From the NCBI GenBank assembly GCA_001001285.1, contig LCKG01000003.1, positions 27,746-91,745 of the forward strand: a stretch of DNA of 64,000 nucleotides, read 5' to 3'. The stretch's first letter is position 1, and each line of letters opens with the position of its first letter. The notes beneath the pieces are model-generated. The model was not told where the DNA came from, searched no databases, and saw nothing but the letters and a program-made list of their open reading frames with translations. This document shows, piece by piece, positions 1,420 to 57,971 of this stretch. The position numbers were made by a program, and so were the translations under genes. The stretch is from Parcubacteria group bacterium GW2011_GWC1_45_13. GTDB taxonomy: Bacteria; Patescibacteriota; Minisyncoccia; UBA11713; 2-01-FULL-45-33.

Positions 1420-3882
1420 ATGGCTCAAAAAGAACCTGAAAAATTACAGGCGATAGGGACGGTTTCGCCAAGAGAGATCGTAACCGAAATGCAGGAGTCT
1501 TATTTGGACTACGCCATGTCGGTTATTGTTTCGCGTGCCTTGCCGGACGTCAGAGACGGCTTAAAACCAGTGCACCGCCGGATTCTTTTTGCCATGCACG
1601 AAATGGGCCTTACGCATTCCGCCAAAACCAAAAAATCCGCTAATGTTGTAGGCGAGGTTTTGGGAAAATATCATCCGCACGGCGACGTTGCCGTTTATGA
1701 TTCATTGGTGAGAATGGCGCAGGATTTTTCCTTGAGATATCCATTGATAGAAGGGCAGGGGAATTTCGGGTCAATTGATGGCGATTCGGCTGCCGCCATG
1801 CGCTACACCGAGGCCAGAATGTCCGCCATTACCACAGAGATGCTCCGGGACATTGAAAAAGAAACAATTGATTTTATTCCGAATTATGACGGGTCAAAAT
1901 TTGAGCCAGTCGTTTTGCCAGCCGCGATTCCGCAACTTTTACTCAACGGTTCCATGGGAATTGCCGTCGGCATGGCCACCAATATTCCACCGCATAATTT
2001 AACGGAAGTCGCGGAGGCGGCGCTCCATTTGATGACGCATCCTAAAGCAACGGTGGAGGACCTTACGGAATTCGTGAAAGGGCCGGATTTCCCGACGGGC
2101 GGAATAATTTTCAATAAAAAAGAAATTTTGCAGGCTTACGCAACCGGCCGCGGCGGAGTTATAAATAGGGGGGAGGCAGAAATTTTGGAGAAAAAAAATG
2201 GCGAATGGCAGATTGTCATCACATCCATTCCTTATTTGGTGAATAAATCGGAGCTGATTGTGAAAATGGCAGATTTGGTGCATGACAAAAAGCTGGAAGG
2301 CATCCGCGATATAAGGGACGAGTCCGACAAAGAGGGCCTCCGCGTGGCGATTGACCTCAAGCGCGACTCTTATCCCCAAAAAGTTTTGAATAATCTTTAT
2401 AAGCATACCGATTTGGAACGCGCCTTCCATTTTAATATGATCGCTTTGGTTGACGGGGGGCGCCAGCCGCAGACACTTTCTTTAAAAAGTATTCTTGAAG
2501 AATTCATCAAACATCGCCGGATAATAATTGAACGAAGGTCAAAATTTGATTTAGCGCGGGCCCAGGACAGGGAGCATATTCTTTTGGGGCTTAAAAAAGC
2601 GTTGGACCATATTGACGCGATAATTAAAACGATAAAAGGTTCCGCCAGCAAAGAAGAGGCGCATAAAAATTTAATTAAAAAATTTGATTTGTCCGACAAG
2701 CAGGCCTCGGCGATTTTAGAAATGCGCCTCTCGGCTTTGGCAGGCTTGGAAAGGCAGAAAATTGAAGACGAGCTGAAAGAAAAACAAAAATTAATCAAAG
2801 AATTAAAAGCGCTTTTGGCGGACGCCAAAAAAATAGACGAAGTCGTGAAAGACGAACTTTCGGAAGCCAAGAAAAAATACGGAGATGAGAGAAAAACAAA
2901 AGTTATTTCGGGAGCCGCGAAAATAATTTCGGCGGAAGATTTGGTGCCGGAAGAAGAAACCATTTTAATTTTAACGCAGGGCGGATACGTAAAAAGAATT
3001 AAGCCGGACGAATACCGCGTCCAGCGAAGGGGCGGCAAAGGAGTCATCGGCGTTACCACAAAAGAGGAAGACGTTGCCTACGAATTTATTTCCGGCAACA
3101 CACACGATGACCTTTTATTTTTTACGAATCTAGGAAAAGTTTATCAAACCAAAATGTACGAAATTCCGGAAGGCACGCGCCAGTCAAAAGGAAAAGCGAT
3201 TGCCAATTTCCTTTCTTTGTCTGCGGACGAAAAAGTTACTTCCGTCCTGCCGGTTCCAAAAACAAAAAAGGGCCAGGCGAGCTACGTAATTTTGTCCACC
3301 CAAAAAGGAGTGACAAAAAAAGTTGATTCCAAAGATTTTGAAGACGTGCGCCATTCCGGAATCCGAGCGATTAACCTCCAAAAGGGGGACACTTTGCGCT
3401 TCGCGCGGGTCGTAATGCCTGGCGAAGAGGTCGCGCTCTCTTCCAAGCTGGGGCAGGCAGTCCGTTTCAAAGAAAAAGACATCCGCCCGATGGGCAGAAC
3501 CGCCCAGGGAATCCGCGGGATGCGCCTTAAAAAGAACGATGAGATAGTTGGGATGGATATTTTGCCGCAAAACGCGAAAAAATTGGAAATTTTATCGGTT
3601 TCCCAGCAGGGCTACGGCAAAAAAACAAATATAACCCAATATCGCCTCCAAAAACGCGGTGGGTCGGGAGTTAAAACATGCAAAGTCACTTCCAAAACCG
3701 GACCTCTGGTTTCTGTTCAGGTTGTGAAAGAAGACCAGCAGGAAATTATCGCGATTTCCAAAAAGGGGCAGGTCATCCGCGCGCCGCTTTCGCAGATTCC
3801 TTCGCTTTCGCGCGCCACGCAGGGCGTGAGAATTATGAAAGTGAACGCAGGAGACGCTGTGGCTTCGGTAACTCTTTTGTAA
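1420..3882 (+). CDS. gyrA: DNA gyrase subunit A
   Basis: Contains AMHEMGL…HPHGD…[42 protein letters not shown], with the catalytic Tyr (…AMRYTEAR…). Length 820 aa, with a C-terminal beta-pinwheel region. Confidence 0.95.
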
Positions 3883-14531: not shown

Positions 14532-15008
14532 GGAAGATTCTTCGCCGGATAGCCGGTCCGATGCAAGATCGGACAGGAAAGTCCGAGCACCGCTAAGGTA
14601 TTCCCGACGCAAAGTCGGGATGCTCAAAGTTGCAGCCTCGCTGCGCTTCGGGCAACTTTGGCAGAGGCAGTGGCTAACGGCCACCCCCCGCCAACGGCGG
14701 GGCGAGAAACTCCGACGTAAAGTCGGAGCCCCGACTTCATTATTAAATTTTTTAATAGTGCGTCGGGGGTGTCACAGAGACAATACCGCGGACGTCATCA
14801 TTTTCGGTCTAAAGCCGGAAGCGTTGATAGCGCAAGGGTGAAAAGAGGTGAGGTAAAAGCTCACAGCATGCGTTGGCGACAGCGCGTGGTGAAAAACACT
14901 TGCCCGGTGCAACCTGCCTTATCGGCGGGGCTAGAGCCCGAGAGAAATCGAGGGCCCAGACAGATGGCTATTTAAACAGAACTCGGCTTATGAGCGGAGA
15001 ATCAGAAT
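14532..15008 (+). ncRNA. rnpB: RNase P RNA (bacterial type A)
   Basis: Universally conserved P4 elements AGGAAAGTCCGAGCACCGC (about 14575..14593) and ACAGAACTCGGCTTATGAGCGG (about 14976..14997). AAGGGTGAAAAGAGGTGAGGTAAAAGCTCACAGC matches the P10-P12 region. 5' GAAGATTCTTCGCC pairs with 3' GGCGGAGAATC (P1). Ends are +/- 5 nt. Confidence 0.85.
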
Positions 15009-15009
15009 C

Positions 15010-15045
15010 CCCAGCCCCCCGATGGACATCGGGGGGCTGGGTTTA
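15010..15045 (+). terminator. Rho-independent terminator after rnpB
   Basis: CCCCAGCCCCCCGATGGACATCGGGGGGCTGGG hairpin followed by TTTAT. Confidence 0.6.
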
Positions 15046-19712: not shown

Positions 19713-21506
19713 ATGCCAAATATCAGGAATTTCTGCATAATCGCCCACATTGACCATGGAAAATCCACGCTTGCCGACAGGATGCTGGAAATTACCAATA
19801 CTATTGAAAAACGCAAAATGCGGGAACAGTTTTTAGATATGCATCCGCTTGAGAGAGAAAGGGGAATCACTATCAAAATGCAACCTGTGAGGATGAATTA
19901 TAAAAATTATATTCTTAACTTGATTGATACCCCCGGGCATATCGATTTTAACTACGAAGTATCGCGAGCGCTGGCCGCGGTGGAAGGAGCAATTTTATTG
20001 GTGGACGCGACTCAAGGCGTGGAGGCGCAGACGCTTTCAAATGTTGAACTGGCGAAATCACTTAATTTAAAAATAATTCCGGTAATCAACAAAATTGACC
20101 TTCCGCAGGCAAGAATCGCAGAGACGAAGGAAGAAATAAAAAATCTTTTTGGGGAAGTCGCCGAGAATATTTTATTGGTTTCAGCGAAAACCGGTGAGGG
20201 GGTGGAAAATCTTTTGGAAGAGATTGTTAAGAAAATTCCTTCCCCCGACTTGGACGTCGGACGTCCAAGTGGACGTCCGACGTCCTTTAACGAACCGCGG
20301 GCGTTGATTTTTGATTTTGAATATTCCGCGCACCGGGGAGTAATAGCGCATGCCAGAATCTTTGACGGAGAAATAAAAAAAGGCCTGAAGCTGAAATTAG
20401 CGGAAGCCAAAGAAATTTTTACAGTGGGCGAGGTGGGGATTTTTAAACCGGAGCTTGAAGCTAAAAACGCGCTAGCGGCGGGCGAAATCGGATATATTGT
20501 CACAGGCATCAAAGAGGCGAAAGTAGTGCGTGTTGGAGACACTATTTTGAGAGAATCCTCTGACCTGCCGGCGCTCGCTGGCTATAAAGAAATTATGCCG
20601 GTGGTTTTCTCCAGCATTTATCCGGAGGACCAAGACAGGTTTGGGGATCTAAGGCGCGCTTTGGAAAGATTAAAGCTTGTGGACAGCGCGATTTTTTTTG
20701 AGGAAGAATCCAGCGGAGTTTTGGGCCGTGGTTTTCGATGCGGATTTTTGGGGGCGCTCCATTTGGAAATTGTGGTGGAACGCCTTACCAGGGATTTTGG
20801 CGTCAAAGTTATTGCTGCTATGCCCACGGTGAAATATAAAATAAAGACCAAAAAAGGCGAATTTGAAATTTATTCGCCGCATAAATTTCCAGATGAGCAC
20901 GAGATTTTGGAAGTTTTGGAGCCTTACATAACAATAGAAATTCTTGCTCCGCCAGAAAAACTTTCCGGAATTTTGAAACTCTTGGGCGAGCATGAGGCGA
21001 AAATTTCCTCTACAACTAAATTTTCAGAATCCCGCATAAAGATAGACGGAGAGATGCCGCTTCGGGAGCTGATGCGCGATTTTTTTGACGCATTAAAAAG
21101 CGTTTCGCAAGGCTACGCTTCTTTGGGTTACGAGTTTTTGGACTCCCGGCCGGCGGATTTGGTAAAGCTGGATGTTTGGGTGGCTGAAGAAATCGTACCG
21201 GCTTTTTCAAGAATTGTTTCCCATGCTCGGCTGGAGTATGAAGCTGAGGCGGCTGTGGAGAAGCTTTATAATATTTTGCCTCGTGCGCTTTTTTCTTTAA
21301 AAATTCAGGCGAAAGCCCAGGGGAGAATTTTGGCATCTAGGTCTCTAAAAGCCATGAGCAAAGACGTAACGGGGTATCTTTACGGCGGCGACAGGAGCCG
21401 TAAAATGAAACTTTGGAAAAAACAAAAAGAAGGCAAAAAAAGACTTGGCGCCCGTGCGGATTACAATATCCCGCCGGAAGTCTATTTGAAGATGATTAGG
21501 AAATAA
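19713..21506 (+). CDS. lepA: Elongation factor 4 (LepA)
   Basis: IAHIDHGKSTLADR…DTPGHIDF…NKID plus the LepA-specific C-terminal domain (…GGDRSRKMKLWKKQKEGKKR…). Carries a roughly 13-aa palindromic insert (see findings). Confidence 0.95.
   Translation: MPNIRNFCIIAHIDHGKSTLADRMLEITNTIEKRKMREQFLDMHPLERERGITIKMQPVRMNYKNYILNLIDTPGHIDFNYEVSRALAAVEGAILLVDATQGVEAQTLSNVELAKSLNLKIIPVINKIDLPQARIAETKEEIKNLFGEVAENILLVSAKTGEGVENLLEEIVKKIPSPDLDVGRPSGRPTSFNEPRALIFDFEYSAHRGVIAHARIFDGEIKKGLKLKLAEAKEIFTVGEVGIFKPELEAKNALAAGEIGYIVTGIKEAKVVRVGDTILRESSDLPALAGYKEIMPVVFSSIYPEDQDRFGDLRRALERLKLVDSAIFFEEESSGVLGRGFRCGFLGALHLEIVVERLTRDFGVKVIAAMPTVKYKIKTKKGEFEIYSPHKFPDEHEILEVLEPYITIEILAPPEKLSGILKLLGEHEAKISSTTKFSESRIKIDGEMPLRELMRDFFDALKSVSQGYASLGYEFLDSRPADLVKLDVWVAEEIVPAFSRIVSHARLEYEAEAAVEKLYNILPRALFSLKIQAKAQGRILASRSLKAMSKDVTGYLYGGDRSRKMKLWKKQKEGKKRLGARADYNIPPEVYLKMIRK
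20252..20285 (+). repeat. Perfect 15-bp inverted repeat (GGACGTCGGACGTCC aagt GGACGTCCGACGTCC) inside lepA coding sequence
   Basis: Seen directly. Four GACGTC hexamers. Encodes LDVGRPSGRPTSF, absent from canonical LepA at this position. Confidence 0.8.
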
Positions 21507-22028: not shown

Positions 22029-22622
22029 ATGCCGGAAATTTTCACAAAAAAGAATATAACGATTTTACTCACTGTTTTATTTCTGGGAGCTGTTATATAC
22101 ATAAGCTTCGGATTTTTGCCGGTTCTTAAAGTTGAGGGGACATCGGTGAGCTATTCAGAATTTCAAAAAGTTTACGGCGCGATCGGCTCTTTTGACAAGA
22201 TTTCCAGAAAACCTGACCCTGCAGGTGGCGGTGGGAACAGCGCGGCGCCGGAAGAGATGAAAAAAATGGCTCTGGAAAGCATTATAGAAAGTAGGCTATT
22301 GGACGAACTGATAAAAGAAGCAAATCCGGAGCTCGCGAAAAAAGCCGAAGAGATTCTGCAAAAAACATTGCTGGAAAATAAAAATTTGTCTTTAGACGAG
22401 GCTTCCAAGATCCTTTACGGGATTTCAGCGGCTGATTTTCAAAAATTGGTTTTATTGCCGCAGGCAAAAAAAGATGCGCTGACGGATTATTACGAATCCA
22501 ATCCGGAGCGCCTGGCCGACCTCTGGACGGCACTCCTAAAAAGCGCTAAAGTGCAAATCTACTACCCGGGATTTTACTGGGAGAACGGAGAAGTTCACCC
22601 CGTTAGAGATTCATCACGCTGA
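22029..22622 (+). CDS. Hypothetical membrane-anchored protein (SurA-N-like?)
   Basis: N-terminal TM then a helical domain. Stop overlaps the start of the next gene (TGATGA). Confidence 0.5.
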   Translation: MPEIFTKKNITILLTVLFLGAVIYISFGFLPVLKVEGTSVSYSEFQKVYGAIGSFDKISRKPDPAGGGGNSAAPEEMKKMALESIIESRLLDELIKEANPELAKKAEEILQKTLLENKNLSLDEASKILYGISAADFQKLVLLPQAKKDALTDYYESNPERLADLWTALLKSAKVQIYYPGFYWENGEVHPVRDSSR

Positions 22623-22882
22623 TGATTTATACTTATGTCATAAAAAGCAGGAAAGATGGCAAATGGTATGCTGGGTCAACCAATGATTTACGGAAGCGTT
22701 TTAACGATCATAATCGTGGACAAGTTTTTTCCACAAAAGGAAGGAGACCGTTTGAGTTGATATACTATGAAGCTTGTTTGGACGACCATGATGCTCGAGT
22801 ACGCGAAAAGTATTTAAAATCAGGCCCAGGCAAAAGATACTTGAAAAATAGATTAAAACGCTCCCTATCTCTAACGGGGTAA
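22622..22882 (+). CDS. GIY-YIG nuclease superfamily protein (YhbQ/UPF0213-like)
   Basis: YTYVIKS…GKWYAGSTNDLRKRFNDHN…ELIYYE carries the GIY…YxG…R…H…E signature. 86 aa. Confidence 0.75.
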   Translation: MIYTYVIKSRKDGKWYAGSTNDLRKRFNDHNRGQVFSTKGRRPFELIYYEACLDDHDARVREKYLKSGPGKRYLKNRLKRSLSLTG

Positions 22883-22893
22883 AAATTGAATAA

Positions 22894-22964
22894 GCGGGTA
22901 TGGTTTAATGGCAGAATGATTGCTTCCCAAGCAATAGATCGGGGTTCGATTCCCCGTACCCGCA
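22894..22964 (+). tRNA. tRNA-Gly (anticodon CCC)
   Basis: Cloverleaf: acceptor GCGGGTA/TACCCGC, anticodon loop TTCCCAA, T-arm CGGGG-TTCGATT-CCCCG. No encoded CCA. Confidence 0.85.
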
Positions 22965-30457: not shown

Positions 30458-30530
30458 ATCGCCAGGATTTCAAGCTTGCCTGCCCCGCCTACCGGCAGGC
30501 AGGCGGCAAGCGGGGCGAGGGGGGTTATTT
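30458..30530 (+). repeat. Cassette-boundary repeat copy B with GC-rich hairpin
   Basis: ATCGCCAGGATTTCAAGCTTGCCT…ACCGG matches copy C. The extra CCTGCCCCGCC…GGCGGCAAGCGGGG imperfect palindrome overlaps the GNAT 3' end. Confidence 0.6.
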
Positions 30531-34602: not shown

Positions 34603-34860
34603 CTATCTCAAGCTGTTTTTATTTATTAAATTTAATTTCTTCTCTCTGCGCCAGCCTTTTATTTCGGTTTCACGGCGGCGAGCTTCTTTTAAAGTGGTAA
34701 ATTTTTCAAAATAACGCAATACCACCGGACGCCTTAGTTTTGTAAAATGCGCGCCCCATTTGGAATTATTGTGTTGTTCTAGTCTTCTTTCTAAATTATT
34801 TGTGCAACCAACGTAAAAAGATTTATCGGCGCACTCTAAAATATAAGTGAAATAAAACAT
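34603..34860 (-). CDS. GIY-YIG nuclease superfamily protein (YhbQ-like) paralog 2
   Basis: FYFTYILECADKSFYVGCTNNLERRLEQHN… 85 aa. Confidence 0.75.
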   Translation of the reverse strand: MFYFTYILECADKSFYVGCTNNLERRLEQHNNSKWGAHFTKLRRPVVLRYFEKFTTLKEARRRETEIKGWRREKKLNLINKNSLR

Positions 34861-34939: not shown

Positions 34940-34998
34940 CGAAGCGAAGAAGGGCTGCGGGACTAGGATTCGGACCTAGATTACACGGTTCAGAGCCG
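34940..34998 (-). pseudogene. Degenerate tRNA-Gln-like 3' fragment (anticodon arm CUG + T-arm + acceptor 3' strand)
   Basis: Minus strand reads CACGG-CTCTGAA-CCGTG TAATC CTAGG-TCCGAAT-CCTAG TCCCGCA G. The T-loop has C at position 55 and no D-stem partner, so it is a fragment. Confidence 0.4.
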
Positions 34999-34999
34999 T

Positions 35000-35040
35000 G
35001 CGCCCCAGCCTTTTCGGCGGGTCGCCGAGGAGGCGACTAC
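35000..35040 (-). repeat. 41-nt direct repeat X, copy 2 (two small hairpins: TCGCC-N5-GGCGA and CCCGCC-GAAAA-GGC(T)GGG)
   Basis: About 36/41 identical to 35422..35462. Both copies are preceded on the minus strand by GGTAG. Confidence 0.6.
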
Positions 35041-35055
35041 CACTTCCGCACAAAA

Positions 35056-35126
35056 CTGGGAGGCCTGGATTCGAACCAGGGTTATGCGGTTCAGAGCCGC
35101 ATGTCCTACCGCTAGACGACCTCCCA
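35056..35126 (-). tRNA. tRNA-Gln (anticodon CTG)
   Basis: Reverse complement: TGGGAGG TC GTC TAGCGGTAG GAC A TGCGG-CTCTGAA-CCGCA TAACC CTGG-TTCGAAT-CCAGG CCTCCCA G. Flanked by a perfect 14-bp inverted repeat (35042..35055 and 35128..35141). Confidence 0.85.
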
Positions 35127-35145
35127 GTTTTGTGCGGAAGTCTTT

Positions 35146-35421
35146 TTACTCCATTAAATAATTTTTCAACTTACCTTTTAATACTTCTCTACCATATCCT
35201 GTTTTATAAAATTTTTCTCCGGTAGTTGCATCTTTCTTGTCTAAATACGCTTCATAATATATTAGTTTGAAAGGCCTGTTTTTACTGGAATATCCGCCGC
35301 CCTTGCCGGAGTTATGTTCTGATACTCTCTGTTTTAAATCTTCGGTAAAGCCAACATAATTTCGGCCGTTTTTCAAACTTTTTAATACATATACGTAAAA
35401 CATGATTTTTATTGAAGCCAT
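35146..35421 (-). CDS. GIY-YIG nuclease superfamily protein (YhbQ-like) paralog 3
   Basis: …MFYVYVLKSLKNGRNYVGFTEDLKQRVSEHN…FKLIYYE. The true start may be the second ATG (35403). Confidence 0.75.
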   Translation of the reverse strand: MASIKIMFYVYVLKSLKNGRNYVGFTEDLKQRVSEHNSGKGGGYSSKNRPFKLIYYEAYLDKKDATTGEKFYKTGYGREVLKGKLKNYLME

Positions 35422-35462
35422 GCGTCCCCGCCTTTTCGGCGGGTCGCCGATGAGGCGACTAC
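35422..35462 (-). repeat. 41-nt direct repeat X, copy 1, immediately 5' of GIY-YIG paralog 3
   Basis: See copy 2. Preceded (35459..35479 on minus) by a tRNA 5'-half-like sequence TGCGGGATCGTCTAACGGTAG. Confidence 0.6.
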
Positions 35463-35579
35463 CGTTAGACGATCCCGCAATAATGCGTATAATATGTAGA
35501 GGTTAGCAAAAAAATTTTGGTTTGACAAAGTTTAGACATTTGTTAATGTTTAAGTGGTTTTGATTTTTGGGAGGTGCGC

Positions 35580-40613: not shown

Positions 40614-41288
40614 ATGTCTAGAAATAATACGATAGCGGTTATAATTTTTGCGGTTTTAGCGGCTGGTGCGGCGGGTTTTTTAACATTTCGCTCCTCAACA
40701 TCCGATGTTAAATCCCAAAAAACATCGGATGTTTTCCCGCGAAATATGGAGGAGGGCAATTCAATCTCTGATGGGATTAAACCCCCGGCTCCGGCTCCGC
40801 AAAATGACGAACTCAATGCTCTTAAAACCGCTGCGCTAGAAAGAAAAATCCCCACGGGGAACGAGGCGGCAACAAAAGAATTAAAAGATTTATCTTCGCA
40901 ATTAAAAAGCGAACCGAATTATATTCAAGGCTGGCTCCAGCTCGGAATCTTAAGAAAATATTTGGGCGATTACGAAGGGGCCAGTTTGGCTTGGCAATAT
41001 GCAACATTTTTGCGCCCGCAAGACTATATCGCTTTTTCCAATCTAGGAGACCTCTATCATTATTATCTGCGTGATTTTCCCAAAGCGGAAAGATACTTGC
41101 GAAAAGCCGTGGATGTGAAGCCCGATTATGTCGCGGGATATAAAAATCTCTTTGACCTTTACATGCTTTCTTACAAAGAAAAGGAAAATTTAGCCGAGCC
41201 CGTTTTACTCGAAGGCATCAAAAAAAATCCTGATGACCATTACCTAGAAACTATTTTAGTTTCTTATAAAAATGATAATCAACGCTAG
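40614..41288 (+). CDS. TPR-repeat protein with N-terminal TM anchor
   Basis: TPR units (YIQGWLQLGILRKYLGDYEGASLAWQYATFLRPQDYIAFSNLGDLY…). Confidence 0.65.
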   Translation: MSRNNTIAVIIFAVLAAGAAGFLTFRSSTSDVKSQKTSDVFPRNMEEGNSISDGIKPPAPAPQNDELNALKTAALERKIPTGNEAATKELKDLSSQLKSEPNYIQGWLQLGILRKYLGDYEGASLAWQYATFLRPQDYIAFSNLGDLYHYYLRDFPKAERYLRKAVDVKPDYVAGYKNLFDLYMLSYKEKENLAEPVLLEGIKKNPDDHYLETILVSYKNDNQR

Positions 41289-42132
41289 AAAAATCAGCTA
41301 TATTTTTTCCGGAGTGTTGGTGGCCTCAAGTTTTTTGGTTTTGGGTGTTTGGGGGTTGAAACTGGGCATTGATTTTACCGGTGGGACTTTGATGGAAGTT
41401 GAATTTAAAGATTCGCGCCCAGATATAAATTTGCCTGATGTAACTATCCAGACAGCCGGGGAAGGGGGACTGATTTTGCGAATGCCAGCTATTGATGAGG
41501 CAAAACACCAAACAATACTCGCCGAGCTGCGCAAATATGGCGAACTGGAAGAAAAACAATTTACTTCAATTGGGCCGACAATCGGCGCGGAGCTTAAAAA
41601 GAATTCCATTTATGCCATCGTTTTGGTAATGATAATGATCGCGCTTTATATCGCCTGGGCTTTTCGGGAGGTTTCCAGGCCGGTGCAATCTTGGAAATAC
41701 GGCGTGGCGGCGTTGATTGCTTTGATCCACGATGTTTCCATCCCCGCTGGATTTTTCGCACTCTTGGGGTATTTTTACGGCGTGGCGGTAGACACGCTTT
41801 TTGTGACGGCGCTTCTTACGATTTTGGGATTTTCCGTGCACGATACAATTGTGGTTTTTGATCGCATCCGGGAGAATTTAAAAAAATTAGGAGCCAAAGA
41901 AAATTTTGAGAATGTTGTTGAGCAAAGCTTGCGCCAGACCATCGGCCGGTCAATCAATACCTCTCTTACTGTGATGATAGTGATGCTGGCGCTTTACTTT
42001 TTGGGCGGGCTCTCCACTAAATTTTTCGCCCTTACCATTTTGATAGGCGTCTTCTTCGGCACATATTCCTCCATCTTCATCGCCAGTTTTCTCTTGGTCA
42101 CATGGCACAAGTGGGGCTTAAAGAGGGCTTGA
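41272..42132 (+). CDS. secF: Protein translocase subunit SecF
   Basis: GIDFTGGT…; six TM helices; conserved HDVSIPAGFFALLG…LGFSVHDTIVVFDRIREN. 286 aa. Confidence 0.85.
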   Translation: MIINARKISYIFSGVLVASSFLVLGVWGLKLGIDFTGGTLMEVEFKDSRPDINLPDVTIQTAGEGGLILRMPAIDEAKHQTILAELRKYGELEEKQFTSIGPTIGAELKKNSIYAIVLVMIMIALYIAWAFREVSRPVQSWKYGVAALIALIHDVSIPAGFFALLGYFYGVAVDTLFVTALLTILGFSVHDTIVVFDRIRENLKKLGAKENFENVVEQSLRQTIGRSINTSLTVMIVMLALYFLGGLSTKFFALTILIGVFFGTYSSIFIASFLLVTWHKWGLKRA

Positions 42133-42220
42133 CTTATTTTGGGGGTCTGATAGAATAGGATTTATTGTCGATGGAGGCTCCGACGCTGCGGTCGGAGAGC
42201 CGACCCCAAGGGCGTCGGCT

Positions 42221-42229
42221 TTATCCACA
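42221..42229 (+). promoter_or_regulatory. Perfect DnaA box TTATCCACA upstream of rpoB, preceded by two CCGAC/GTCGG hairpins (42178..42220)
   Basis: Exact 9-mer. Hairpins CTCCGAC-gctgcg-GTCGGAG and AGCCGAC-N9-GTCGGCT. Confidence 0.45.
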
Positions 42230-42381
42230 AGGGGTCTTATTGACATTTTTTAATGGCGAGATAAAATAGTCACTATCGTTTTGAATACTAAAGCTGGCAC
42301 CTAAAGATAGTGTTTTTCAGTCCTCGTAAGCAATCATAAAGAGGGCTATTTTGGTTTATTCTTAAAGTAATTTAAGCTAAA

Positions 42382-45300
42382 ATGCCGATACAAAAAAAAT
42401 ATTTCTCCCGTTACCGGGAACCCTTGGCGAGCTTGCCCAATCTGGCTGAAATGCAGTTAAAATCCTTTGAATGGTTGGCAAAGGAAGGAATCGGCGAAAT
42501 CCTGAAAGAATTTTCTCCCGTGCTGGATTACACCGGCGAGGAGCTCGCTTTGGAATTTTTGGATTATTCTTTGGACGAACCGAAATTTGATGAAAATTAT
42601 TCTAGGGTAAACAATCTTTCCTACGAAGCTTCTTTAAGGCTTCGCATTCGTTTGGTCAACAAACGCACCGGTGAAAAAAAAGAGCAGGAAATCTTTTTGG
42701 CGGATATGCCCATTATGACCCCCCGCGGAACTTTTCTTATAAACGGCGTGGAGCGAGTGATTGTCTCGCAGCTCGCGCGTTCCTTCGGCGCGTATTTTAC
42801 GGCCAATATTTCGCGTGGGAAAAAACTTTTCGGCGCCAAGATAATTCCTTCCCGCGGGGCCTGGCTGGAATTTGAAACGGAGTCGGACGGAACAATGTAC
42901 GTAAAAGTAGACCGCAAAAGAAAAATCGCGGCGACTGCGTTGCTTCGTATTTTCGGTATGGAAAAGAACGAAGAGATTAAAGATGCTTTTTCCAAAGTAG
43001 ACAACGGCGAAGTTTCTTTCATAAACCAAACACTGGAAAAAGATTCCACCAAAACAGCCGACGATGCTTACGTGGAAGTTTTCAAAAGAATAAGGCAAGG
43101 GGAGCTGGCCACTCCGGAAAACGCCAGAGAACTGGTGGAGCTGATGTTCGGCCCAGAAAGATACGATATTTCCGCTGTGGGCAGATATAAGCTCGGCCAG
43201 AGGCTTCCGGCTCTGGCTTCCATGAAAGTAAAAAATCCGCGTATTTTAAATAAGGAAGATATGATCGTCGTAATTTCGGAAATAATTTCTTTAAATAATA
43301 ATCCGCTGGCTGTCCAGGACGATATTGATAATTTGGGCAACCGCAGGGTACGCTCGGTGGGAGAGATGCTTCAGCAAAGATTGCGCATCGGGCTCGCGCG
43401 CATGGAGCGTACCATTAAGGACCGCATGTCCACTTCCGATTTGGCCACGGTAACCCCGGCTCAACTTTTAAACGCGCGCCCATTTGCCGCGGTAATTTCC
43501 GAATTTTTCATGACCAACCAGCTTTCCCAATTTATGGATCAGACCAATGTTTTATCCGAATTGGAACATAAGCGCAGGGTTTCAGCTTTGGGCCCGGGGG
43601 GACTTACTCGCGAAAGATCCGGTTTTGAGGTGCGCGATGTTCATCCCTCTTACTACGGCCGGCTTTGCCCGATTATGACTCCTGAAGGCCCAAATATCGG
43701 TTTGATAAATTATTTGGCGGGATACGCAAAAATTAATGAATATGGAATTTTGGAAACTCCTTACAGAAAAGTTGTTGATGGGCGCGTGTCTAAAGAGCTT
43801 CATTATCTTACGGCTTTTGAAGAGGTTAGGCATAAAATCGCTCAAGCCGGAGTTTCCATTGATAAAGAAGGCAATATTTTGGATGAGGAATGCGAAGGAC
43901 GCGCGAGCGGCCAGCCGGCGCTAATTCCGCGTGGCGAGATTAATTACATGGATGTTTCTCCACAGCAGGCTTTTTCCGTCGCGACTTCTTTGGTGCCGTT
44001 TTTAGAGCATGACGATTCAACCCGCGCCATGATGGGTTCCAACATGCAGCGCCAAGCTGTGCCTTGCGTCCGGCCGCAGGCGCCGTTGGTTGCCACCGGC
44101 ATGGAGGAAAAAGCAGCCAAGGATTCTGGCAGGCTTGTTTTAGCCGATGTGGATGGAATCGTAAGCAAGGTTGACGCTAATTCCGTAACGATACGTTATG
44201 AGAAACCCCGACGTAAAGTCGGGGCTCCGACCAAAGCGTCGGAGGAAAAAACTTACGAATTAATGACATTCGTCCGTTCCAACCAGTCTACTGTAATCCA
44301 TCAGCGTCCTTCAGTGAAAGTCGGTGACAAAGTAGAGAAGGGAGATGTTTTAGCTGATACCTCGCTGACCGACCGGGGACATTTGGCTTTGGGGCAAAAT
44401 TTGCTGGTAGCTTTTCTTTCATGGGGCGGAGCTAATTTTGAAGACGCCATCATACTTTCAGACCGCATGGTGAAAGACGATGTTTTTACTTCAGTTTTGA
44501 TAGAGGATTACACGGTGTCTGTGCGGGACACCAAGCTGGGCCCGGAAATTACCACGCATGATATTCCCAATGTGGGAGAAGAAAGGCTCAAAGATTTGGA
44601 TGAAGATGGAATTGTAAGAATTGGCGCCGAAGTCAGGCCCGGCGATATTTTGGTCGGGAAAATTTCTCCGAAAGGTGAGTCGGATCTCACTCCAGAGGAA
44701 AGACTGCTCCGCGCCATTTTCGGAGAGAAAGCTAGAGATGTCAAAGATACTTCTTTCAGAATGCCGCACGGCAGAAAAGGCCGCGTGGTCGGCATCAAAA
44801 TTTTTTCTCGCGAAAAAGGAGATAAATTGGAAACAGGAGTGATTAAGGAAATCCGAATTGAAGTGGCCGAGATGAGGAAAGTTTCTCCGGGCGACAAATT
44901 GGCCGGCAGGCATGGAAATAAAGGCGTTATCTCGCGCATTCTGCCGCAGGAAGATATGCCGTATTTGGATGACGGCACGCCGGTGGATATAATTTTAAAT
45001 CCTTTGGGCGTGGCATCACGCATGAATATCGGGCAAATTTTGGAAACACACTTGGGCTGGGCCGCCCAGAAGTTGGGCTATATGGCCATAACCCCGACCT
45101 TGGCGGGAGCTACCGAAACCGAAATAAAAGAAGAATTGAAAAAAGCCGGATTACCGGAAGATGGTAAAATAAAACTTTTTGACGGGCGAACCGGCAGGGA
45201 ATTTGACCAAAAAGTGACTGTCGGCATGATTTATGTGATGAAGCTTTCCCATATGGTGGAGGACAAAATCCATATGCGTTCCATCGGTCCTTATTCGCTT

Positions 45301-56924: not shown

Positions 56925-57971
56925 CTATATTTTAAACTCAATGACATCGCCATCTTTCACTATATAATCTTTGCCTTGGGAGCCTAGCCAGCCTAATTCC
57001 CGAGCTTTTGTCCATGAGCTCGCTTCCATAAGCTTTTCCCAAAATACAACATCGGCACGGATAAAGTTTTCCTCAAAATCGCTGTGAATGGCGCGCCCGG
57101 CACGTTTGGCGGTTGAACCTTGAGGAATGGTCCATGCGCGCGTTTCTTCCTCGCCGGCCCCGACGTTCTGTCGGGGCGCCGACTTCGTTATTTCTTTTAT
57201 ATAGTGCGTCGGCGTGGTAAAAAATGTAATCAATCCTAAAAGTTCGTACGCGGCTTTTATGAGTTTCGGAAGTTGTGGTTCAATACTCAGCTCTTTTCTC
57301 TCTTCTTCGGACATCGCTGAAACATCGTTTTCTTGGGCAATATCTAGTACCACAGAATTTGGAAATCGGAAGTCAGAGGTTAGATTGCTTGTTGCTGAAA
57401 CATTGAAAACGTAAATGGTGGGTTTAAAAGATAAAAGCTGGTATTGTTTGGCCACGCCGGAAGGTATTTTTTCAAAATTCTCTAACGCGCTGACAAGTTC
57501 GGCGGCCTCTTTTTTCCCGCTTTTTGCGTCTGTTTGCGCCTTTTCTTTAATTTTTGCCACCGTCTCCAAATCTTTCAAAGCCAGCTCCGTTTTTATGGTT
57601 TCAATGTCGGAAAGGGGATTGGGTTTTCCGGAGACATGGATAATATTTTCATTTTCAAAAGCGCGGACAATATGGCAGATAGCATCCACTTCGCGTATAT
57701 GCGATAAAAATTTGTTTCCAAGCCCCTCGCCTTCCGCGGCGCCCTTAACTAGTCCCGCAATATCCACAAATTCAATTACGGCAGGCACGATTTTTTTGGA
57801 CTTAGAAAGTTTGGCCAATTTATCCAATCTTTCGTCAGGCACCTGAACCACGCCCACATTGGGGTCAATGGTGGCAAAAGGGTAGTTGGAAGTATCTACC
57901 TGTTTTTTAGTAAGCGCCTGAAAAAGCGTTGATTTTCCGACATTTGGTAGGCCGACTATGCCCATCTTCAT
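56925..57971 (-). CDS. ychF: Ribosome-binding ATPase YchF (Obg-family)
   Basis: GIVGLPNVGKSTLF plus a C-terminal TGS domain. Contains an in-frame hairpin insert (57158..57176). Confidence 0.9.
   Translation of the reverse strand: MKMGIVGLPNVGKSTLFQALTKKQVDTSNYPFATIDPNVGVVQVPDERLDKLAKLSKSKKIVPAVIEFVDIAGLVKGAAEGEGLGNKFLSHIREVDAICHIVRAFENENIIHVSGKPNPLSDIETIKTELALKDLETVAKIKEKAQTDAKSGKKEAAELVSALENFEKIPSGVAKQYQLLSFKPTIYVFNVSATSNLTSDFRFPNSVVLDIAQENDVSAMSEEERKELSIEPQLPKLIKAAYELLGLITFFTTPTHYIKEITKSAPRQNVGAGEEETRAWTIPQGSTAKRAGRAIHSDFEENFIRADVVFWEKLMEASSWTKARELGWLGSQGKDYIVKDGDVIEFKI

Follow-up and report, generated by a model that had tools for sequence, protein, structure and literature searches.

The 64-kb window analysed here (the whole stretch examined, from contig LCKG01000003.1 of Parcubacteria group bacterium GW2011_GWC1_45_13; ~45% GC) belongs to Candidatus Giovannonibacteria, a lineage of the candidate phyla radiation (CPR; Patescibacteria), and contains four copies of a small GC-rich element made of two abutting hairpins, two of which lie in frame inside the essential genes rpoB and ychF. 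The analysis establishes that these copies are insertions, that they belong to a family with a defined anatomy, that copies inside protein genes are biased towards lengths that preserve the reading frame, and that the family is physically associated with a short gene for a GIY-YIG nuclease and with tRNA genes. The double hairpin is probably the portable module of a selfish cassette composed of this nuclease gene and a tRNA, the window copies being versions that lack the nuclease gene.

Enrichment and anatomy of the double hairpin

The window contains seven matches to the pattern CCGAC-N3-8-GTCGG, where 100 shuffles predicted 0.09 and never gave as many as seven, and the asymmetric pattern CCGACG-N3-6-GTCGG-N4-CCGAC-N4-30-GCGTCGG is matched four times against 0.00 expected, so that the motif, which a preliminary description of this DNA had reported as recurrent, is far more frequent than composition would predict. 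All four copies match on the + strand, and a hairpin scan of the window revealed that each consists of two directly abutting hairpins with 7-bp stems; the hairpin recognized in the preliminary description (hairpin A) is real, while the second hairpin at each site (hairpin B) had been overlooked. Each stem comprises a CCGAC/GTCGG core and two covarying outer pairs, and the total length is 39-59 bp in the window copies and 39-60 bp family-wide. Single-strand folding of the window copies gives two hairpins, with energies between -14 and -19 kcal/mol and z values of -4.5 to -7.4. The hairpin B loops of the copies in ychF and in the RNase P RNA gene are 24-26 nt long, AT-rich and related in sequence (TTCRTTATT...ATAGTGC).

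A scan with the double pattern, using one genome per species, returned at least 120 loci, and 121 copies were analysed. The outer two stem pairs are paired in 114 of the 121 copies for hairpin A and in 112 for hairpin B, their identity differs among copies (CC/GG, TC/GA, CT/AG, AG/CT and others), and an eighth pair occurs only at chance rate, indicating that the stem is exactly 7 bp long. The loop of hairpin A begins with G (GTAAA, GCTTCG and others) and that of hairpin B finishes with GC (CGAAGC, CAAAGC or a longer stem-loop); hairpin B approximates an A-type unit in reverse complement, and matches on both strands occur in 20 of the 121 copies. Solo hairpins exist as well as double ones. Outside the 7-bp stem only a weak purine/pyrimidine preference is seen, with a weak tendency towards TYAR before and YTRA after the element and no fixed flanking tetranucleotide. 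The idea that the flanks form a closing stem, and hence a three-way junction, was not supported, as flank complementarity is mostly 0-2 bp.

It could be argued that such palindromes arise by chance from base composition, since matches are also obtained in high-GC genomes (Actinomycetota and others) and in three viral contigs of high GC. However, the window is only 45% GC, the observed counts exceed the shuffled expectation as given above, and neither an exact stem length nor covarying outer pairs would be anticipated from composition. On the evidence of the shuffles, a chance origin was rejected for the window and the low-GC Patescibacteria loci, and its probability is close to nil.

Lineage-specific insertion into ychF and rpoB

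The ychF gene lies on the - strand, and its double hairpin, oriented on the + strand, occupies 57158..57214 (57 nt, 19 codons encoding PTHYIKEITKSAPRQNVGA; folding z=-4.5), with hairpin A at 57158-57176 and hairpin B, which has a 24-nt AT-rich loop, at 57177-57214. Hairpin A reads CCCCGAC-GTTCT-GTCGGGG on the + strand and CCCCGAC-AGAAC-GTCGGGG on the gene strand, where it encodes PRQNVG in the same codon phase as the corresponding hairpin of rpoB, in agreement with what had been noted previously. The window YchF is 100% identical to that of Candidatus Giovannonibacteria GW2011_GWC2_44_9 and is 348 aa long, compared with 328 aa in its closest orthologues (~80% identity). In an alignment of 23 sequences, PTHYIKEITKSAPRQNVGA is found between FFTT and GE only in the window protein and is absent from 22 of 22 orthologues; the insert postulated earlier is therefore present, its size being 19 aa relative to close orthologues where ~15 aa had been estimated relative to E. 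coli YchF. At the DNA level (comparison with loci L002, L004 and L006), the two hairpins account precisely for the additional 57 nt, the empty site reads TTTTTCACCA/CCGGAGAAG (the slash marks the insertion point), and comparison of filled and empty sites shows no clear target duplication apart from a 1-nt ambiguity. In an AlphaFold2 model of YchF, the insert falls into a loop of low confidence flanked by two strands; a loop position is only weakly indicated because the model is poor (mean pLDDT, the predicted local distance difference test score, of 59).

In rpoB the double hairpin occupies 44206..44244 of the + strand (39 nt, 13 codons encoding PRRKVGAPTKASE) and is composed of hairpin A (44206-44224, CCCCGAC GTAAA GTCGGGG, the sequence and its translation PRRKVG being as first described) and hairpin B (44225-44244, CTCCGAC CAAAGC GTCGGAG), which fold into two 7-bp hairpins at -14.3 kcal/mol (z=-5.6). 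The peptide PRRKVGAPTKASE is missing from 13 RpoB homologues, namely the 86%-identical P0121 and 12 others. A DNA alignment with locus L211 contains a 36-nt gap with GGAG microhomology, which renders the insert boundaries ambiguous, and empty-site DNA of rpoB is too diverged to fix boundaries or detect a duplication. For both RpoB and YchF, orthologue comparison thus confirms that the hairpin-encoded residues are lineage-specific inserts coinciding with palindromic DNA.

These comparisons also bear on the possibility that selection maintains the hairpins for a function at the RNA or DNA level (processing, stability, termination or protein binding, for example) and that they are not mobile DNA. 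Such a role would be in line with the intact stems and covarying outer pairs, with the strong folding and with the retention of the motif across the whole phylum; moreover, in loci that carry the nuclease gene the hairpins lie in the 5' leader of its mRNA and could regulate it. On the other hand, copies are absent from the closest ychF and rpoB orthologues, and no CCGAC hairpin was found in ~115 kb from other Giovannonibacteria; copies occur in unrelated genes and in both orientations relative to the host gene, and hairpins are found nested within one another. If rpoB required such a structure, relatives should share it, which is not the case for the rpoB copy. The preliminary description had named a strongly selected RNA structure as the alternative to a palindromic insert, and this alternative is not favoured, in view of the variable orientation of the copies relative to the host gene, their absence in close orthologues and their translation; we regard it as improbable.

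Frame preservation in copies inside genes

Copies were classed as intragenic by a crude open reading frame (ORF) test that requires 40 or more open codons on either side. By this test, 33 of 111 copies lie inside long ORFs of housekeeping genes and ~70% are non-coding; as Patescibacteria genomes are assumed to be gene-dense, an intragenic share of ~30% indicates depletion from coding DNA. The host genes, as identified by NCBIfam, include those for IleRS, SecA, a ClpB-like chaperone, LeuRS, SMC, GatB, NusA, HisRS, RpoD and ProRS, and intragenic copies occur in both orientations relative to them; one further copy is located in a 23S rRNA gene (L100). The length is divisible by three in 26 of the 33 intragenic copies compared with 34 of the 78 remaining ones (binomial p=1e-7; Fisher p=8e-4). 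This enrichment argues against splicing of the intragenic inserts and for their translation, by which 13-20 residues are added to the protein, as in RpoB and YchF.

The same bias weighs on the suggestion that the copies are tiny intervening sequences that are removed from the transcript and never reach the protein or the mature RNA. According to a study of CPR rRNA genes, these genes contain many insertions, including short non-intron inserts without ORFs, some at sites of RNase III-processed intervening sequences (PMC11270868), and copies in RNase P RNA, in 23S rRNA (L100) or in a tRNA D-loop would be less harmful if excised. However, in protein genes the predominance of stop-free inserts with lengths divisible by three would be unexpected if these were spliced out, and no intron family was matched in Rfam in a scan of the window and of 18 loci. 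For protein genes, a self-splicing intron or processed intervening sequence was discarded on these grounds, and as a general explanation it is very improbable.

Association with a minimal GIY-YIG nuclease and tRNA genes

Among the non-coding copies, many are located within TAG/CTCAG or TAGCTCAG/TTGGTAG, which correspond to duplicated 5' fragments (~nt 1-24) of tRNA genes, and the intact gene of the duplicated tRNA is found just downstream of such fragments. A reading of the CCGAC element as an insert in the D-loop of tRNA genes was rejected, as its in silico deletion yielded no ARAGORN tRNA, and was replaced because the flanks are duplicated 5' fragments upstream of intact tRNAs. The largest cluster of ORFs near the elements encodes ~90-aa proteins that consist of the GIY-YIG catalytic domain alone, with PF01541 matches at E values of 1e-13 to 1e-19 for three proteins of the window and two from other loci. 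The resulting cassette comprises, in order, a tRNA 5' fragment with a double hairpin in the D-stem/D-loop, the GIY-YIG ORF and the intact copy of the same tRNA, which often overlaps the GIY-YIG stop codon, and several times this TAG codon coincides with nucleotides 8-10 of the tRNA. Only 2 nt distinguish the rpoB element of the window from the hairpin found in a tRNA-Arg cassette (L095).

In order to remove ascertainment bias, 80 metagenome loci were fetched by means of a 'KRKDY' subfamily protein (~87 aa) alone. Among these protein-selected loci, a strict CCGAC double hairpin is present within 200 nt upstream in 48/76 and at least one CCGAC hairpin in 68/76, most of the other loci that fail the strict test containing nested or compound hairpins. 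A tRNA on the same strand starts -10 to +47 nt from the stop codon in 62/73 loci, and the upstream fragment is identical to the first 10 nt of the downstream tRNA in 25/47; the tRNAs found 3' of KRKDY-type genes are those for Arg, His, Lys, Val, Thr, Asn, Phe and Ile. The type of hairpin follows the nuclease subfamily, in that KRKDY-type genes are accompanied by CCGAC hairpins in 9/9 cases and other small GIY-YIG genes by CCGCC/GGCGG-type hairpins or none, and a further co-variation links the outer pair of hairpin B to the class of tRNA insertion site. Physically and co-evolutionarily, the association between the hairpins and the minimal nuclease gene at tRNA genes is very strong.

Complete CCGAC hairpins with 7-bp stems were also encountered inside the loops of other CCGAC hairpins (loci in the range L131-L210; e.g. 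L131, L136, L147, L161 and L197). Such nesting is frequent, usually occurs right after the conserved loop G and yields branched or extended stems, which suggests that a single hairpin unit can enter single-stranded loops. In locus L031, a 24-nt tRNA 5' fragment (GGACAGTTAGCTCAGTTGGTAGAG) is located ~78 nt upstream of a tRNA-Val (3718-3793) without hairpin or nuclease gene, and could be the remnant of a lost cassette or an independent duplication.

An alternative to the cassette reading is that the double hairpin is an element of the MITE (miniature inverted-repeat transposable element) or repetitive extragenic palindromic (REP)/REPIN kind which is moved in trans by another enzyme, for example a hairpin-recognizing Y1/HUH transposase, and which gathers near GIY-YIG genes by target preference, dead tRNA fragments being tolerant sites. 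Its two hairpins do approximate inverted copies of one unit, as in a REP dimer or REPIN; the ychF insertion lacks a target duplication, as in single-strand transposition of the IS200/IS605 insertion sequence type; hairpin loops receive nested insertions; and the hairpin-free L031 fragment indicates that tRNA 5' fragments can exist without the element. In addition, all four window copies lie on one strand whatever the gene direction, in a window whose GC skew is monotonic, although a 4/4 bias is not significant (p=0.125). In contrast, the co-variation of hairpin type with nuclease subfamily and of the hairpin B outer pair with tRNA site class fits co-inheritance as one unit better than random landing, the hairpins occupy the same relative position in 68 of the 76 protein-selected loci, and no Y1 transposase was found among the ORF clusters near the elements in genomes sampled in 8-kb pieces. 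Mobilization by another enzyme is accordingly unlikely, if still the most serious competitor of the cassette reading.

A possible mechanism of spread

Under the cassette reading, the home of the element would be the unit formed by a tRNA 5' fragment with a double hairpin in its D-arm, the ~87-aa KRKDY GIY-YIG gene and the intact tRNA of the same kind. The hairpin module is also present without the nuclease gene, namely in intergenic DNA, at helix tips of structural RNAs (P9 of RNase P RNA, 23S rRNA), in the loops of other hairpins and in protein genes; within essential genes, survival would be limited to copies that keep the frame, are free of stops and lie in surface loops that tolerate them. 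The GIY-YIG nuclease would drive the spread of the module; it might cut hairpin, cruciform or D-arm-like DNA, the module being copied in during repair. Slx1 is known to cut branched DNA. Stand-alone prokaryotic GIY-YIG domains have been described as Slx1-like minimal nucleases (PMC1564403), and by analogy the minimal Slx1-like domain of the KRKDY nuclease suggests structure-specific cutting. A more specific proposal, which appears rather improbable, is that the tRNA 5' fragment and double hairpin, instead of being a dead remnant, together act as a recognition module that directs the ~87-aa nuclease, either as cruciform DNA or as a guide-like RNA within the leader of the nuclease mRNA, with the hairpin being copied into the cuts. 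If true, this would amount to a structure-guided or RNA-guided homing and transposition system specific to Patescibacteria, and would account for the many short lineage-specific inserts in their proteins and RNAs.

Several points weigh against the cassette reading. The GIY-YIG proteins of 85-91 aa contain the catalytic domain only, with no recognisable DNA-binding domain; solo copies show neither a target-site duplication nor a clean target consensus; and the four window copies differ in loops and outer pairs, which indicates that they are not recent offspring of one master. No KRKDY-type nuclease gene is present in the 64-kb window, and among the 52 proteins returned by a search for KRKDY homologues none was attributable to the organism of the window. 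An independent element that prefers D-arm-like or hairpin-loop targets, as supplied by the cassette, could also generate the association. Finally, we know of no transposition intermediate, and the evidence base is wholly computational.

Relation to known systems

Palindromic elements of Rickettsia (RPEs), reportedly described by Ogata et al. in 2000, resemble the present element as palindromic repeats of a reduced-genome bacterium, and translated in-frame insertion, as in the 26 of 33 intragenic copies here, is common to both, the likeness being one of function. RPEs are ~100-150 bp long and restricted to one genus, and we know of no nuclease gene associated with them, whereas the element described here is 39-60 bp long, has two fixed 7-bp stems, occurs phylum-wide and is linked to a GIY-YIG gene and tRNA fragments. 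Two of the Rickettsia families, RPE-4 and RPE-6, are mentioned in PMC3733652.

The REP, BIME and REPIN elements, which are associated with RAYT transposases, are short GC-rich hairpins that often occur as inverted dimers and are in some cases intragenic, although REPs are mostly extragenic; their head, GTAG or CGTC, is unpaired, a CCA tail is often present, and REPs of the CGTC group have stems of 8-9 bp that open with A-T pairs (PMC3733652, PMC3337134). Unlike these, the stems of the present element are exactly 7 bp, abut the flanks and lack an unpaired tag, and the linked enzyme is a GIY-YIG nuclease instead of a Y1 transposase. Membership of the CGTC-tagged REPs was rejected, as CGTC here falls within stem plus loop with no unpaired head. 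Nor is the element a MITE, given that ychF has no target duplication and that each hairpin is internally palindromic rather than part of simple terminal inverted repeats. Elements derived from IS200/IS605 (PATE-like) insert without duplication, 3' of a fixed tetra- or pentanucleotide, and their subterminal hairpins stop short of the ends; here the ychF insertion shows no clear duplication, no fixed tetranucleotide flanks the copies, and the hairpins extend to the element ends.

Double-hairpin elements are also known from Allomyces mitochondria. For yeast mitochondrial GC clusters and the repetitive hairpin-forming elements of sponge mitochondria, mobility has been deduced from differences in presence and absence (PMC4478555, PMC2800124). 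These mitochondrial elements share with the present one their tiny GC-rich hairpins, their residence in AT-richer reduced genomes and their sites, which include intergenic DNA, variable rRNA regions and in-frame positions in protein genes; they differ in being organellar and unrelated in sequence, and no linked nuclease/tRNA cassette has been described for them.

Free-standing GIY-YIG homing endonucleases include SegB of phage T4, which is encoded in the phage tRNA gene cluster (PMC2330249, PMC2988022) and thus offers another case of a selfish GIY-YIG gene beside tRNA genes, with a target in or next to a tRNA gene. However, Seg proteins possess DNA-binding domains and are ~200 aa or longer, while the CPR proteins are bare catalytic domains of 85-91 aa; the CPR cassette also differs in its duplicated tRNA 5' fragment and double hairpin, and in that the hairpin spreads alone too. 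Within the same phylum, Tsurumaki et al. (2024) described uncharacterised rRNA inserts of <200 bp, situated at stem-loop tops or bases, as well as inserts other than introns with GIY-YIG ORFs (PMC11270868); that study is confined to rRNA genes, and the passages found in its main text by a term search define no hairpin family, protein-gene insertions or tRNA cassette. Group I introns are known in CPR tRNA genes (PMC13011429). No description of the element, of its copies in protein genes or of the tRNA-fragment cassette was found in the searchable CPR literature, coverage of which is incomplete, so that a prior description is possible. The findings point to a family of selfish DNA, with double hairpin and nuclease, that has apparently not been described so far, and the probability that the mechanism of the cassette is novel is appreciable.

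Distribution

Among the matches listed from the species-level scan, ~105 are low-GC loci, nearly all of them labelled as Patescibacteria lineages (Saccharibacteria, Paceibacteria/Parcubacteria groups, Doudna-, Kerfeld-, Wolfe-, Taylor-, Kaiser-, Adler-, Nomura-, Yanofsky- and Giovannonibacteria), and ~14 are high-GC genomes (Actinomycetota and others) in which chance matches are expected. Carriage by phages was rejected, as the 3 matches to viral contigs are high-GC and attributable to chance. One Taylorbacteria genome contains four near-identical symmetric copies at separate loci (L042, L085, L107 and L113), which have ~14 nt of their left flank (CCCCATTCGTATCCAT) in common, as well as TYGT on the right; this likeness is due either to a repeat unit that is slightly longer or to a preference for certain target sites. 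Together with the insertions, the enrichment and the bias towards lengths divisible by three, the Taylorbacteria copies support the initial proposal of a frame-preserving GC-rich palindromic element similar to REPs and MITEs. These four copies, the frequent nesting of hairpins and the lack of CCGAC hairpins in ~115 kb from other Giovannonibacteria are signs that insertion has been repeated or recent. A variant double hairpin (TCCCGAC GATACAT GTCGGGA and TGCCGAC CGACAGC GTCGGCA) is found in Chitinophagaceae, namely in a metagenome-assembled Chitinophaga genome (L034) and in the isolate Terrimonas pollutisoli (L083), on account of which related elements may occur outside the Patescibacteria. No Rfam family covers the element, since 18 loci scanned at gathering thresholds gave only tRNAs and one 23S rRNA.

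Significance

Patescibacteria represent a large share of bacterial diversity and have tiny genomes with many unexplained insertions in rRNAs and proteins, one class of which gains an identity in the form of a defined double-hairpin element with a candidate driver gene. Even rpoB, ychF, the genes for sigma-70, SecA and several aminoacyl-tRNA synthetases, and that for RNase P RNA have been invaded. In practical terms, such inserts defeat gene and RNA finders (in this window they brought the RNase P RNA below the Rfam threshold and left an interrupted tRNA-Gln without a call), inflate apparent protein divergence and can serve as presence/absence markers for strain tracking. Should the GIY-YIG link be causal, it would constitute a new propagation route for a minimal nuclease, one that is testable in vitro.

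GIY-YIG genes of the window

The window contains three GIY-YIG-only genes, none of which is of the KRKDY type, and their hairpins are of a different type or lacking. The first belongs to a cassette at 35146..35479 on the - strand, in which a tRNA-Gln 5' fragment (35479-35460) is followed by a second-type double hairpin, E2 (35459-35427; GTCGCC..GGCGAC and CCGCC..GGCGG), a 91-aa gene (35421-35146) and an intact tRNA-Gln(CUG) at 35127-35055. Beyond it lies a second tRNA-Gln(CUG) at 34955..35050 (- strand), whose D-loop is interrupted by E2 (35037-35005); it receives no ARAGORN or Rfam call as it stands and is recognized by ARAGORN as tRNA-Gln only after in silico removal of E2. The upstream tRNA-Gln fragment and the 3' part beyond the second E2, when joined, likewise give an ARAGORN tRNA-Gln. 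The layout of 34955-35479 looks as though an older tRNA-Gln had been split by a unit of nuclease plus replacement tRNA.

A gene for an 86-aa GIY-YIG-only protein at 22622..22882 (+ strand), whose start overlaps the stop codon of the preceding ORF, is located 12 nt upstream of a tRNA-Gly(ccc) at 22894-22964. No hairpin and no tRNA fragment were found upstream of this gene, for which reason 22622-22964 looks like a bare version of the cassette. The third gene, at 34603..34860 on the - strand, encodes a protein of 85 aa.

RNase P RNA, intergenic and lepA sites

The gene for RNase P RNA (bacterial class A; 14537..15006, + strand) scores 112.9 bits against RF00010 in a local search (gathering score 100) and falls below the gathering score in whole-window or larger scans, where it is missed because of a 142-nt insertion. 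In the cmscan alignment, this 142-nt block takes the place of the 10-position P9 hairpin of RF00010 and holds both a double hairpin and CCGCC-type hairpins. The double hairpin (14710..14768, + strand; folding -18.7 kcal/mol, z=-7.4) comprises hairpin A at 14710-14728 and hairpin B at 14729-14768, the 26-nt loop of which forms an AT-rich extension of the stem. The preliminary description had assigned two related hairpins of this RNA to 14566-14586 and 14699-14728; both exist, their true positions being 14602-14620 and 14710-14728, and only the second lies in the insert. The first (+ strand, TCCCGAC GCAAA GTCGGGA) resembles hairpin A yet aligns to the native P8 helix of RF00010, and was rejected as an inserted element. 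The P9 expansion also includes, within 14621-14709, a hairpin with a 9-bp stem (14625-14660) and a CCGCC-type pair (GTGGC TAACG GCCAC and CCCCGCC AAC GGCGGGG) that ends at 14702, which suggests successive hairpin insertions at one place, the tip of the P9 helix. Directly 3' of the RNA, a perfect 14-bp GC-rich stem at 15010-15041 (CCCAGCCCCCCGAT ggac ATCGGGGGGCTGGG) followed by TTTATATAA is the probable terminator of this gene.

The fourth copy of the window is intergenic, upstream of rpoB (42178..42220, + strand), where tandem hairpins had been reported and are indeed present. It comprises CTCCGAC GCTGCG GTCGGAG (42178-42197) and AGCCGAC CCCAAGGGC GTCGGCT (42198-42220), favours an alternative long-hairpin fold and, at 42178-42220, received no terminator call. 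Two sigma-70-like promoter matches bracket it (42129-42267). No rplL is found ahead of rpoB (41272-42132), in departure from the usual rplKAJL-rpoBC order.

In lepA, a compound palindrome at 20245..20285 (+ strand; GGACGTCGGACGTCC aagt GGACGTCCGACGTCC) contains CCGAC..GTCGG and encodes PDLDVGRPSGRPTS. Its 15-bp stem is built on GGACGTC/CCGAC units, its sequence is unlike that of the double-hairpin element, and, compared with Thermus EF4 (5imq), it adds ~9 residues in the linker that follows the G domain. From its sequence, it may be a related insert or a member of a different hairpin-insert family.

Other hairpin-like inserts

Further inserts were noted in YchF of related genomes. The YchF of L004 has its own 17-aa insert, NLPAGSPRWSSGEAGKA, derived from an imperfect GC hairpin; LPDGKAG (21 nt, CCTGCCCGACGGCAAGGCGGG) is common to three YchF orthologues and GGSRERA to two; and other Giovannonibacteria YchF inserts, some of them hairpin-like, occupy other positions. 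Short hairpin-derived inserts seem, as far as these sequences go, to be a general feature of the proteins of this clade. In the window, a cluster of GC-rich palindromes that overlap one another at 30474-30516 (GCTTGCC TGCC CCGCC...GGCAGGCAGGCGGCAAGC) resembles the CCTGCC/GGCAGG hairpins of the L004 ychF insert, and similar CCTGCC/GGCAGG hairpins are located upstream of a GIY-YIG gene in L081.

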